64,000 bases of DNA from Escherichia coli (GCF_030013205.1 NZ_CP122649.1); one strand, 5' to 3'. Positions 55,920-59,595 are shown, counted from the first letter of the stretch. The notes: generated by a model not told the origin, from the letters alone. Numbers and translations are program-made.

Positions 55920-57022
55920 TGGATGAGCAAATTACTCTGACACAAAATCAAATTTTCAGTGCATCTCTGAAAGTAAGTAAAAGCCGCTCGCTCGTTAAGC
56001 GGCGTATGCAATCATTAGGGTTGAAGTTTACCGAATCGCAGGATGTCCGTAACCGACTGGCGGGGATAGAAAAAGGTGCTTTGAAATGTGTGGGGCAATT
56101 TTGCCATGACAACGATGCTGAGTCTTTATCAGCGATGGCGATCATCCTTTCCGAGCTTTTTCTGCTGCAAGGCGAACTGTCCACCAGCAATGAATACGGT
56201 GACCATGAAACGAGTTACTGGACCGTAGCACAAGGCCCATGTGATGAATGGGTCCAGTCTCTGCTGGCGAGCGAAAATGGTCGACGTACATTTAATAGCT
56301 TTCGTATAACTTTCGACAACTCCGAAGAGCGCCGCAGCCTCGTCGAAAAAAATGCCAAAATGCTGGGGAGTTATTTATTGCCTTATTTTGTCAATTTTAC
56401 AAATGCTGCATCTGCGTTTATTACGCTGCCTAATAGCATCACGTTTAAACAGGTGCAACGCAACAAGCCGCTCATTCACCCTGAAACCACATTAAGTCAC
56501 ATTCTCACAATAGAAGATTCGGCGTTTCTCTCTCGGATCAAATTTAAACTTATCTCGGCAATTGACCGTCTGCCCGACCCGTCCGGTCAGTATGCCAACA
56601 TGTTCAATCACATCATGGATCGGGCGCTGCTGACGCACCTCAACCGGGAGCAAATTGATAGCCCTTGTGTGTGCAAAAAGGTCATTTCCACCTATGCAGA
56701 CACTATGCTGACGCTCCCGATATTTAATACGACGATTACCGGGAAATACCGGCACTGGACCCCGTGGGGGATTAATTTTGTCGAGTTTAGTCGTCAGGCT
56801 GCAAAGGAAAAATCTTGTGTCTATGTTCCTGAACCCGGCCAAATTCACTGGAAAAGTCCGGAGCATAAGGAACTGGCAGAGTACAGCCTGATCAACCAGA
56901 TAATCCCGCAGCAATACCACTGGTTGCTGGGTGTGCCGACAATCTGGCGCAGTCACTATCGTGACCATAGCAAACGATTAGACTTATTCAAGGAGTGGAG
57001 GGACACAAATGGCTGCGGATAA
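55919..57022 (+). CDS. hypothetical protein, transfer operon
   Basis: ATG overlaps the coupling-protein stop (TGATG); no motif recognised. Confidence 0.5.
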   Translation: MDEQITLTQNQIFSASLKVSKSRSLVKRRMQSLGLKFTESQDVRNRLAGIEKGALKCVGQFCHDNDAESLSAMAIILSELFLLQGELSTSNEYGDHETSYWTVAQGPCDEWVQSLLASENGRRTFNSFRITFDNSEERRSLVEKNAKMLGSYLLPYFVNFTNAASAFITLPNSITFKQVQRNKPLIHPETTLSHILTIEDSAFLSRIKFKLISAIDRLPDPSGQYANMFNHIMDRALLTHLNREQIDSPCVCKKVISTYADTMLTLPIFNTTITGKYRHWTPWGINFVEFSRQAAKEKSCVYVPEPGQIHWKSPEHKELAEYSLINQIIPQQYHWLLGVPTIWRSHYRDHSKRLDLFKEWRDTNGCG

Positions 57023-57671
57023 TTCTGCTCGTGCAATATTCATCAGGGGACTGCTTTTACTAGGGATGATGCTTTATCTTATTTATAGTCTGGGGTTCCA
57101 GAACACCGACGAGCTAAAGCAACAAATCACTCAGGAGGTGAACGCCAGTCGTAGCCTTATTTCTAATGACCGGTGGTTATCTGTTATTGCAAATAGTGAG
57201 GCTACTTTATCCACCCTGATTAATGACTATAAGCTGATCGACTATCTGAATACGATACTGATCCCGGACACATCGACACCTGCACGTGGAATGAATTACG
57301 TTGCCGAAAAGATGACATCAGTAAACTACACTGTGGCAAAAAATCTACCCCTGCTGATTTATCAGTCCATTTTCCGCTGGAATCTGATACTCGGTTGGCT
57401 GATTTTGTTTTCACCATACCTAATTGCTATGCTCGCTGATGGCATGTATCAGTGGAAATTAAAACGTTACGTTTTCGGTAATGTAACCGTTCAGTTTTAC
57501 AGAATCTGGTTCAGGGCCTTCTGGATAATTGGTGCATTAACCTTTATATACCTATCAATGCCTAATATGTCACTTTTTAACAATATCGCTCAACTGTTCC
57601 CCCCTGTCGCATTGTTGATATTGGGAATTGCACTCAACCGTTTGTGGTCTAACTTTCAAAAACTTATGTAA
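57009..57671 (+). CDS. hypothetical integral membrane protein (4 TM)
   Basis: 220 aa; overlaps upstream gene by 14 bp. Confidence 0.55.
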   Translation: MAADNSARAIFIRGLLLLGMMLYLIYSLGFQNTDELKQQITQEVNASRSLISNDRWLSVIANSEATLSTLINDYKLIDYLNTILIPDTSTPARGMNYVAEKMTSVNYTVAKNLPLLIYQSIFRWNLILGWLILFSPYLIAMLADGMYQWKLKRYVFGNVTVQFYRIWFRAFWIIGALTFIYLSMPNMSLFNNIAQLFPPVALLILGIALNRLWSNFQKLM

Positions 57672-57683
57672 TAAGGTGGTCAG

Positions 57684-58865
57684 ATGTTTAAACGTAATAA
57701 TAAGAAGTCACCTGCCAATATCAAAGAATCGCTTGATGAGAACGCTGACCGTTTCTATAAAATGTTCCGAATCCATACCACGTCAAAAGTGGTTATTTCA
57801 CTGCTGGCATTAGCCGCCGCAGGGGTTTCGGCCTTTAATATTTACGATAAGTATCAGGAATCCGAAGGACGAATGGATCATATCGCCGTCGTGCGTATCT
57901 CGGGAGAAATGGGTACCGGTTCTGAGGTCGGCGATGGATCTGTGATAGCCACAGCACTGGCGAAAGCGTACAACAACCCACATGCCAAAGCCGTCATTAT
58001 TGAAGCTGAGTCAGGTGGCGGCGGTCCTTCAGACGCGATTATTATTTACCGCCAGATTAATGCACTACGAAGCCACCAGCAGAAGATTGAACGGGTTTCA
58101 CATGCCGAATCCACAAGCAAGCCCCGTAACACGAGTGATCACAGTGCTTCACGTTCGCAGGCCGATAGCAATGCCGAACTGTCGAAACGTAATACGCTGG
58201 ACGTTCTCTCCGCCGGGAGTGGGCATTTCATTTCTGATATGGAAAACAGCTACAAGCCTATTATCGTCAGCGTCAAAGGAATTTGTGCGTCAGCATGCTA
58301 CTACGCTGTGTCCCCTGCTGACGCCATTTATGCAGACAGTAGCGCTCTGACCGGTTCGATCGGTGTCCGAATGGATCACTGGAACCTGTCTCGCGTTATG
58401 GATACTGTCGGCGTTAAAAATGAGCCACTCACCGCCGGGGAGTTTAAAGATGCACTCGACCCCTATCATCCACTTTCTGATGCCACCCGCGATTTTATGC
58501 AGAAGCAAATCCTGGATGCAATGCACGAACAATTCATTGCGGACGTTGAGCAAGGCAGGGGTAAGAAATTATTAAGCCGTCCGGAGGCTGATGCTGTCGC
58601 ACTGTATTCCGGCAGGGTATGGACAACGCAGCAGGCGATCCGGTACGGACTCATCGACGGTGACCTGACACCTGTCGAAGTCCGTTCACGCCTGTCCCAA
58701 ATGTACTCAACCACTATCTTCAAGACGTACAACGAGCCACAACGGTCGCTTCGCTCCGCGCTCGGGATGTTAATGAGTCTGTCGACTAACGTCGAAACGC
58801 TGGCAGGAACAACCTCTCGGATACTTGATTCTGTTCAGGCCACCAGCTATCCGACGGTGAGATAA
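57684..58865 (+). CDS. S49-family (SppA-like, ClpP-fold) serine peptidase, membrane anchored
   Basis: N-terminal TM; S49-like motifs IAVVRISGEMGTG, AVIIEAESGGGGPSD, VKGICASACYYAVSPADAIYADSSALTGSIGV; AAGGTGG RBS. Confidence 0.65.
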   Translation: MFKRNNKKSPANIKESLDENADRFYKMFRIHTTSKVVISLLALAAAGVSAFNIYDKYQESEGRMDHIAVVRISGEMGTGSEVGDGSVIATALAKAYNNPHAKAVIIEAESGGGGPSDAIIIYRQINALRSHQQKIERVSHAESTSKPRNTSDHSASRSQADSNAELSKRNTLDVLSAGSGHFISDMENSYKPIIVSVKGICASACYYAVSPADAIYADSSALTGSIGVRMDHWNLSRVMDTVGVKNEPLTAGEFKDALDPYHPLSDATRDFMQKQILDAMHEQFIADVEQGRGKKLLSRPEADAVALYSGRVWTTQQAIRYGLIDGDLTPVEVRSRLSQMYSTTIFKTYNEPQRSLRSALGMLMSLSTNVETLAGTTSRILDSVQATSYPTVR

Positions 58866-58866
58866 G

Positions 58867-59595
58867 ATGGATGCAATTTTGATGGTGTGGCGAGTGATAG
58901 GAATCAGCATTATTGTCCTAGCACTCATTGTGCTTTACTGCCTGATGGGATTTGTATCGTCGGCCATTGCTGAACGCAGGACAGCCAGACAGATTGAAAT
59001 ATACCTGCCTGATGATGCAGAAGGGCTTCTGAGCGACTTAACGCTGCCGGTCAATGCCACCGGCACCACGCAGATTGATCACGTTCTTATCGCCTCTCAT
59101 GGACTCTACGTCATCGAGCAGAAGAACTATGCAGGAAAGCTCTATGGGAAGCTGGAGGAGAGCCACTGGCGAAAATGGAAATCGTCAGGGACACTAAAGT
59201 TACAAAACCCGTTCAGGCAGAACTACGGGCACATAAGGGCCATTCAGTCCACGTTACGCGCCAGCGAGCTGGAGTGTATCAATGTTGTCATCATTAACGG
59301 CCCCTGCAAGTTTGAAGGTGAGAAGCCAGACTGGCTTTGCATGGGTATGGAGGAGTTCGTTCGGAAAGTCACTGAGAGGCGCCAGTTAAATGTATTCAAG
59401 CCTGAAGCAGTAAGTTTTATCCGTGGAGAGCTGAAGCTAAAGAGAAAGCCTCCGGGCCTTTATACTGATTTGAACCATATCCACAACGTTACCACTCGAT
59501 ACAAAACAACCATGCGGCTGGAGCAGCGTATTACCTATAACCTTTTGCGCTTTTCTCGGCTTATACTGAGTAAAATGTTCAGATCGGCAAAGTAA
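58867..59595 (+). CDS. NERD-domain (nuclease-related) membrane-anchored protein
   Basis: N-terminal TM; NERD-like core QIDHVLIASHGLYVIEQKNYAGKLYG...LQNPFRQNYGHIRAI; starts 2 bp after the peptidase stop. Confidence 0.65.
   Translation: MDAILMVWRVIGISIIVLALIVLYCLMGFVSSAIAERRTARQIEIYLPDDAEGLLSDLTLPVNATGTTQIDHVLIASHGLYVIEQKNYAGKLYGKLEESHWRKWKSSGTLKLQNPFRQNYGHIRAIQSTLRASELECINVVIINGPCKFEGEKPDWLCMGMEEFVRKVTERRQLNVFKPEAVSFIRGELKLKRKPPGLYTDLNHIHNVTTRYKTTMRLEQRITYNLLRFSRLILSKMFRSAK

Follow-up and report, generated by a model that had tools for sequence, protein, structure and literature searches.

Described relatives of the genes at the end of the IncHI transfer operon

'TraG-J pairs' are known from a review on coupling proteins (citing Gunton et al. 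2007): here, the coupling protein depends on an adjacent, multi-transmembrane (multi-TM) TraJ protein of about 200 amino acids (aa). A deletion study of Rts1 found its DUF4400 gene (Orf204), homologous to traJ of R27 and SXT, to be essential, and traJ deletions abolish transfer of IncC plasmids. Here, we analyse the genes that close the H operon of an IncHI plasmid in a stretch of 64,000 nucleotides (nt) from Escherichia coli (GCF_030013205.1, NZ_CP122649.1), referred to below as the window. In this operon, a traJ gene (R0117) is followed by genes for a membrane-anchored S49 peptidase (R0116) and for a membrane-anchored protein with a nuclease-related domain (NERD; R0115).

SppA of Bacillus subtilis and E. 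coli (MEROPS S49) has a ClpP-like fold, a Ser/Lys dyad, one N-terminal anchor and an extracytoplasmic catalytic domain, as predicted for R0116. In B. subtilis, the polytopic membrane protein SppI is encoded together with SppA and controls it (PMC7568657), and the SppA-SppI pair offers a useful parallel for the traJ-S49 pair. Known NERD proteins (Grynberg and Godzik 2004), including pXO1-01, the N-terminal domains of PglW and MAD6, and TbLrRP2, share with R0115 the match to the NERD profile, a D...ExK motif and the PD-(D/E)xK fold. Anchoring by one TM segment, as in R0115, is frequent in this family. The trypanosome protein TbLrRP2, the only TM-NERD protein known to have been studied by genetics, appears to act on RNA. 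SNIPE, the best precedent for a nuclease restrained at the membrane, is a single-TM nuclease with its N-terminus outside the membrane (N-out), which cleaves phage DNA during injection and is toxic once released from the membrane. We know of no bacterial TM-only NERD protein with a demonstrated function.

Organization of the 3' end of the H operon

A database comparison showed that IncHI1 plasmids are 100% identical to the window over this region, and its protein set is common to the prototype R27; the source of the window is an IncHI1 (R27-type) plasmid. The genes are ordered mobI/traH, R0121 (240 aa), traI (MobH relaxase), traG (annotated as traD), R0118, traJ, R0116 and R0115. A supplementary table of the R27 transcriptome lists R0122 as traH, R0121, R0120 as traI, R0119 as traG, R0118, R0117 as 'traJ, relaxosome protein', R0116 as '(H), peptidase' and R0115 as '(H)' (PMC7366339). 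The last three genes are, then, already catalogued H-operon members of Tra1, at the 3' end of the IncHI DNA-transfer operon.

The reading we favour, at a probability of about 0.5, is that this end of the operon combines a core transfer component, TraJ, with a periplasmic peptidase that accompanies traJ (R0116) and an accessory nuclease on the cytoplasmic side of the membrane (R0115). The three genes would not form a module, but one core transfer protein and two separate accessory enzymes. Databases and the R27 literature already contain the genes together with their operon membership and family annotations, and the finding is the correct annotation of catalogued genes. What is new is the assignment of the peptidase to traJ across distant MOBH elements, at a conservation equal to that of the coupling protein. 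To this we add that the NERD gene joined later and is specific to IncHI, with a parallel in Pseudomonas plasmids, and that the two enzymes probably face different compartments.

A first-pass annotation of the window had treated the last three genes as a trio of a 4-TM protein, an S49 peptidase and a NERD protein, and had noted that a membrane-tethered nuclease-like protein with a partner protease, co-transcribed with the genes for DNA processing, is no standard part of type IV secretion systems (T4SSs). The three open reading frames (ORFs) lie where it had placed them, all on the + strand (57009-57671, 57684-58865 and 58867-59595), and their co-transcription with the relaxase and coupling-protein genes is upheld. 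The traJ ORF and the 368-aa ORF before it share 14 nt, spacings of 12 nt and 1 nt follow traJ and R0116, respectively, and Shine-Dalgarno-like GGTGG/GGTGA sequences lie immediately 5' of R0116 and R0115. Pfam searches upheld both enzyme families, the motif IDHVLI...VIEQK is present in R0115, and each enzyme has one N-terminal TM segment, as had been proposed. The grouping itself did not hold: the first gene is traJ, a known essential component of MOBH transfer and the partner of the coupling protein, and the trio is therefore not one unit. The first-pass annotation had itself named known essential transfer components as an outcome that would count against it, and traJ is one.

The first gene encodes TraJ

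The 220-aa product of the first gene (57009..57671, + strand) matches Pfam PF14348 (DUF4400/DtrJ-like) with an E-value of 2.4e-12 over model positions 24-196 of 196, and its accession, WP_000718546.1, is that of R27 TraJ. It contains three to four hydrophobic segments, with a loop of approximately 90 aa between the first two, and is encoded one ORF downstream of traG/traD, beyond the MobH relaxase gene. TraJ of R27, DtrJ of IncC and TraJ (s043) of SXT share its Pfam family, size, TM segments and position after the coupling-protein gene, without any difference that we could identify. The protein is TraJ, the known essential inner-membrane partner of the TraG/TraD coupling protein, a role we take from the literature. 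The earlier description of a 4-TM protein was right about multiple TM segments but not about a non-standard component.

An S49 peptidase tied to traJ

The gene directly behind traJ is an S49 gene in IncHI1, IncHI2 and IncHI3 plasmids, in further IncHI-like lineages from metagenomes (at least four), and also in Shewanella plasmids (pHD6416-NDM type) and a Motilimonas replicon. The architecture of these traJ-linked peptidases is constant: a basic tail, a TM helix, a Cys-Ala-Ser-Ala-Cys motif and a variable insertion of 40-60 aa. In the Shewanella and Motilimonas loci examined, no NERD gene was found behind the S49 gene. Between IncHI1 and the Shewanella and Motilimonas elements, the S49 proteins are 32-34% identical, compared with 35% for the coupling protein, 26-28% for the relaxase, 26-30% for MobI and 23-24% for TraJ; the peptidase is as conserved as the coupling protein between IncHI and distant MOBH elements. 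Within IncHI, S49 identity tracks that of TraJ. The ratio of nonsynonymous to synonymous substitution rates (dN/dS) is 0.083 for R0116, compared with 0.062-0.175 for essential genes, and 0.147 for R0115, so that both enzymes are under purifying selection. A simpler S49 peptidase, without the insertion, is encoded beside dsbA and away from traJ in IncC and pAQU-like plasmids. A contig scan for diverse MOBH elements using a TraJ alignment returned eight loci, IncHI-like ones and two from Motilimonas, and the breadth of the traJ-S49 pair elsewhere is thus thinly sampled. Because traJ-S49 pairs occur without NERD genes, and TM-NERD relatives without S49 genes (see below), the sequence comparisons place the peptidase with traJ, as its old companion in one MOBH branch, and not with the NERD gene.

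R0116 (393 aa; 57684..58865, + strand) matches Peptidase_S49 (PF01343) over residues 188-326 with an E-value of 8.8e-31. In a phmmer alignment, residues 188-325 pair with B. subtilis SppA, with Ser203 on the nucleophile and Lys255 on the general base; Lys255 aligns to an Ala of the crystallised SppA, which is a mutant at the general-base position. Ser203 lies in the context Cys-Ala-Ser-Ala-Cys-Tyr-Tyr (Cys201 to Cys205 at 58284-58298, + strand) and Lys255 in Gly-Glu-Phe-Lys-Asp (58446-58448, + strand), and both residues are invariant in 11 homologues. An AlphaFold2 model, with a predicted local distance difference test (pLDDT) value of 70 and with the insertion and the C-terminal tail disordered, has SppA 3RST as its best structural match (E 1.2e-14, TM-score 0.77 on the target), followed by E. 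coli SppA, ClpP and the stomatin-specific protease 1510-N. Alignment and model together point to an SppA-like Ser203/Lys255 peptidase that is predicted to be catalytically intact. R0116 nevertheless scored below the NCBIfam cut-offs, with 121.7 against 155.45 bits for SppA_dom, 92.2 against 311.45, 64.8 against 746 for PRK10949 SppA and 53.5 against 259 for SohB, and by these equivalog models it would not be an orthologue of SppA or SohB proper. It further differs from SppA in the Cys residues flanking the nucleophile, the disordered 40-60 aa insertion and its site in a conjugative operon after traJ.

The single TM segment of R0116 spans residues 36-54 (57789-57845, + strand). The N-terminal 27-39 residues hold four to nine Lys/Arg in every lineage, and the remaining residues are net acidic. 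From this charge distribution, a basic N-terminal tail and an acidic remainder, we predict an N-in/C-out topology with the protease domain in the periplasm, as in SppA.

Two features set the traJ-linked peptidases apart from other S49 proteins. The Cys-Ala-Ser-Ala-Cys motif is found in all of them, in place of Gly-Ala-Ser-Gly-Gly in the IncC S49 and Ala-Ala-Ser-Gly-Gly in B. subtilis SppA. The cysteine pair beside the nucleophile could form a redox switch in a periplasmic enzyme; plasmids carrying the traJ-linked S49 also encode DsbC/thioredoxin-like transfer proteins. The insertion within the ClpP-like fold (residues 131-188; 58074-58247, + strand) varies in sequence, contains many Ser, Pro and charged residues, and has a low pLDDT. 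It is kept in all traJ-linked S49 proteins and is absent from the IncC S49 and from SppA.

A membrane-tethered NERD protein of separate origin

R0115 (242 aa; 58867..59595, + strand) matches the NERD profile (PF08378) at residues 33-143, covering model positions 3-110 of 111, with an E-value of 5.3e-23. Its fold is the restriction-endonuclease-like PD-(D/E)xK fold, and the motif residues D71 (59077-59079), E84 (59116-59118) and K86 (59122-59124), all on the + strand, are invariant, together with H72 and Q118, in 12 sequences that are 30-90% identical to R0115. One TM segment occupies residues 10-28 (58894-58950, + strand) and an amphipathic helix lies at the C-terminus (residues 218-241). These features identify R0115 as a predicted PD-(D/E)xK nuclease tethered to the membrane. 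Unlike the multidomain NERD proteins, it is not joined to a kinase, helicase or topoisomerase-finger domain. Its short N-terminus is acidic and basic residues follow the TM segment; in 12 out of 12 homologues, the net charge of the soluble part is +4 to +14. Given the acidic N-terminus and the basic residues after the TM segment, R0115 is predicted to be N-out/C-in, with a cytoplasm-facing domain that resembles DNA-binding ones. The catalytic domains of R0116 and R0115 would then probably lie on opposite faces of the inner membrane in all lineages.

A profile search retrieved 4,229 clusters at E<1e-10, and the matches often cover the TM region and the C-terminal extension. The TM-NERD relatives sampled are encoded in unrelated chromosomal or plasmid contexts, and in every non-IncHI context sampled the S49 neighbour was absent. 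R0115 is also the most divergent of the three proteins, with 33-41% identity in distant IncHI lineages versus 48-58% for TraJ and the S49 peptidase. R0115 is a later addition to the IncHI clade, and the family it comes from, that of stand-alone TM-NERD proteins, is very large. Within IncHI, R0116 and R0115 are almost always kept together: match counts for NERD and S49 per identity band were 212 and 211, 53 and 53, and 970 and 967, covering approximately 1,235 IncHI1/IncHI2-type plasmids. An apparent counter-example, a 158-aa 'non-NERD' ORF after the S49 gene in one locus (L020), proved to be a NERD gene cut by an assembly gap.

A different TM-NERD protein, 24% identical to R0115, is encoded by the last gene of a dsbC-traC-S26-traW-traU operon in Pseudomonas IncP-7-like MOBH/MPF_F plasmids. 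A membrane-anchored NERD protein at the tail of a transfer operon has arisen at least twice, in IncHI and in these plasmids. The Pseudomonas loci are those of pSDM007 and p1160-VIM (L035, 6001-6720, and L006, 5404-7516), and in p1160-VIM a gene for an IscB RNA-guided endonuclease is inserted between traU and the NERD gene.

Other NERD loci were found in more diverse surroundings. In the chromosome of Pseudenterobacter timonensis (L014, 9001-10482), a NERD gene whose product is 66% identical to R0115 is accompanied by the two following IncHI backbone genes, without S49, and the fragment adjoins insertion sequence fragments and a contact-dependent-inhibition toxin gene; it is probably an IncHI plasmid remnant. 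The co-occurrence of R0114 (118 aa) with NERD in this chromosome had raised R0114 as a candidate immunity partner, which we rejected, as three consecutive backbone genes are most simply explained as a remnant. In the MOBH/MPF_F plasmid p123 of Vibrio tubiashii (L040, 3351-4696), a thermonuclease-family gene overlaps the NERD gene, and IncC and pAQU-like backbones (L005, L007) carry an S49-DsbA-...-thermonuclease cluster. Peptidase and nuclease genes recur in MOBH/MPF_F backbones, in differing arrangements. Among the closest non-IncHI relatives of the TM-NERD protein is one from a Chloroflexota metagenome-assembled genome (L017, 6001-7380), whose gene is convergent with an AcrVA2-like Pfam gene, with an overlap of 4 nt.

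Possible roles of the two enzymes

In the explanation we favour, TraJ is the polytopic inner-membrane partner needed by TraG, as the literature describes. R0116 would trim or turn over periplasm-exposed parts of the TraG-TraJ/T4SS inner-membrane platform, for example, the TraJ loop of about 90 aa; alternatively, it may clear leader and signal peptides arising from assembly of the transfer apparatus. Host SppA/SohB would cover its loss in the laboratory. R0115, whose N-terminal helix is predicted to hold it on the cytoplasmic side of the inner membrane, would cut nucleic acid only at the membrane, near the coupling-protein channel, as a non-essential accessory function. Its target would most likely be nucleic acid, DNA or RNA, that arrives in the cell carrying the plasmid, and not the transfer intermediate of the plasmid itself, and by analogy a role against incoming nucleic acid is plausible.

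Several observations weigh against this explanation. Both topologies are derived from hydrophobicity and the positive-inside rule only. If R0116 were merely a redundant signal-peptide peptidase, one would not expect it to be as conserved as the coupling protein. Donors carrying R27 stay sensitive to the H-pilus phage of classical assays, which speaks against a strong anti-pilus-phage role of R0115, and R27 has EexA/EexB to account for its entry exclusion, eexB being listed among the Tra2 genes. Lawley et al. (2002) reportedly found nine of the 14 Tra1 ORFs, namely trhR, trhY, trhF, trhH, trhG, traH, traI, traG and traJ, to be essential. R0116 and R0115 would accordingly be dispensable for laboratory transfer, in agreement with the absence of tra or trh names for them.

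The combination of a protease with a nuclease had suggested an exclusion, incoming-DNA surveillance or defence-like module to the first-pass annotation. In a defence or toxin module of this kind, the NERD protein would be processed, activated or released by the S49 peptidase, or both would act with the 4-TM protein, against incoming DNA. The coupling of R0116 and R0115 across a 1-nt gap, which would make them translationally coupled, their retention together in essentially all IncHI plasmids and the presence of NERD domains in the defence proteins PglW and MAD6 are in line with such a module. We nonetheless consider it very unlikely. That the catalytic domains are predicted to face different sides of the inner membrane in all lineages, together with the different evolutionary histories of the two genes, argues against a protease-activated nuclease: S49 follows traJ without NERD in Shewanella and Motilimonas, TM-NERD relatives lack an S49 neighbour in the other contexts sampled, and the 4-TM protein is TraJ, with its own established role in transfer. 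No system in PADLOC-DB was matched; R0115 hit only weakly the NERD end of PglW (E 1e-3 and 7e-3), the other three proteins had no match and no BREX/Pgl partner genes were present. Across NCBIfam and PADLOC, the matches were at the domain level only, to the NERD ends of PglW and MAD6, and our literature search found no functional study of R0115, of R0116, or of IncHI with S49 or NERD.

R0115 might be a gatekeeper in the manner of SNIPE, a nuclease confined to the membrane, which would spare host and plasmid DNA, that cuts superinfecting plasmids or the genomes of pilus phages as they cross the inner membrane by the T4SS/coupling-protein route. This proposal is compatible with the explanation we favour, which it would make specific, and we regard it as doubtful. 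The predicted architecture is that of SNIPE, with a short periplasmic N-terminus, one TM segment and a basic, cytoplasmic, nuclease-bearing domain, and the same logic of distinguishing self from non-self by membrane confinement could apply. Moreover, R0115 lies in one operon with the coupling-protein gene, expression of R0115-R0118 is seen both at 25 and at 37 °C, including the temperature at which R27 transfer is repressed, and in another family of MOBH/MPF_F plasmids a tra operon likewise closes with a TM-NERD gene. On the other hand, the nuclease families differ (PD-(D/E)xK versus GIY-YIG), Pfam finds only NERD and no DUF4041 in R0115, and SNIPE, which combines DUF4041 with GIY-YIG, is not linked to plasmid transfer and is supported by experiment. 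Most of the plasmid-borne NERD genes sampled lie outside tra operons, exclusion by R27 is credited to EexA/EexB, and H-pilus phage still plates on R27 hosts.

For the peptidase, a competing view is that of a plasmid-borne signal peptide peptidase serving general envelope housekeeping, with no specific link to TraJ or the coupling protein. It would account for the SppA fold and dyad, for the S49 gene that sits beside dsbA, away from traJ, in IncC and pAQU-like plasmids, and for the reported dispensability of R0116 in transfer. We find it rather unlikely, given scores under the NCBIfam SppA and SohB cut-offs, the lineage-specific Cys-Ala-Ser-Ala-Cys motif and 40-60 aa insertion, and a position after traJ that stays fixed although TraJ itself is only 23% identical and the conservation of the peptidase equals that of the coupling protein. 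Both enzymes could instead be relaxosome factors for DNA processing that matter in natural transfer, the nuclease processing the transferred strand or ending transfer and the protease maturing TraI, TraG or TraJ. They share the operon of traI and traG, are co-induced with them in the htdA mutant and are under purifying selection similar to that of essential genes. Such roles are improbable in our view: the cytoplasmic relaxase is out of reach for a periplasmic protease, the Shewanella and Motilimonas DNA-transfer (Dtr) operons sampled have no NERD gene, neither enzyme adjoins traJ in the IncC or Rts1 gene orders seen, and both are reportedly missing from the nine essential Tra1 genes.

A bolder version of the explanation we favour would have TM-NERD proteins recruited at least twice as sentinels on the channel side, and R0116 as the dedicated periplasmic protease of the TraG-TraJ translocon. 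The NERD protein would then destroy rival plasmids or pilus-phage genomes that enter through or beside the conjugation apparatus, membrane confinement sparing the resident DNA, and R0116 would be a previously unrecognised conserved component of one MOBH DNA-transfer branch. We hold this combination to be quite unlikely. Much multidrug resistance in Salmonella, E. coli, Klebsiella and Enterobacter is carried on IncHI plasmids, and R0116 and R0115 belong to the conserved backbone, with more than 1,800 sequenced plasmids encoding them in our searches. As a true translocon component, R0116 would be a new, potentially druggable part of MOBH conjugation; as a true membrane guard, R0115 would give a function to the very large TM-NERD family and add a plasmid-encoded layer of exclusion or defence.

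Expression and neighbouring features

In R27, RNA-seq showed similar expression of R0115-R0118 at 25 and 37 °C and 8-12-fold thermoregulation of the promoter-proximal R0121 and R0122, and all H-operon genes were up 4.7-11-fold in an htdA mutant (PMC7366339). As R0115-R0118 are not thermoregulated while R0121 and R0122 are, these data suggest an internal, temperature-independent promoter upstream of R0118, for which a simple sigma-70 scan gave no convincing site. The coupling-protein gene traG (R0119; RefSeq TraD), an ORF of 694 aa at 53835..55919 (+ strand), is annotated as conjugative coupling protein TraD in an identical plasmid. Between it and traJ lies R0118 (55916..57022, + strand), a conserved H-operon ORF of 368 aa that the first-pass annotation had passed over. 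By hydrophobicity R0118 contains no TM segment, and it has no Pfam-derived annotation and no match in NCBIfam, PADLOC or PHROG. An ORF occupies this position in all IncHI lineages, and shorter ORFs (181 and 190 aa) occupy it in Shewanella and Motilimonas.

Directly after the R0115 stop codon, a hairpin at 59596..59624 has a folding energy of -16.6 kcal/mol (z -4.62), and none of 200 shuffled sequences was as stable. A consensus terminator scan made no call here, and the hairpin is supported by folding instead. It separates R0115 from R0114, the convergent 118-aa ORF. Because the GC hairpin is flanked by an A-tract and a T-tract and faces a convergent ORF, we read it as a bidirectional intrinsic terminator that ends the operon.

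Upstream, R0121 (240 aa, 50067-50789) has no Pfam-derived annotation and no NCBIfam or PADLOC match; it does match phrog_20548 (E 4.5e-137), which places a near-identical protein in a record classed as viral. The longest relaxase ORF begins at a TTG codon at 50758 and overlaps this 240-aa ORF, and RefSeq traI starts fall later (region 50758-50869), in versions of 3036 nt and 2967 nt in different plasmids.

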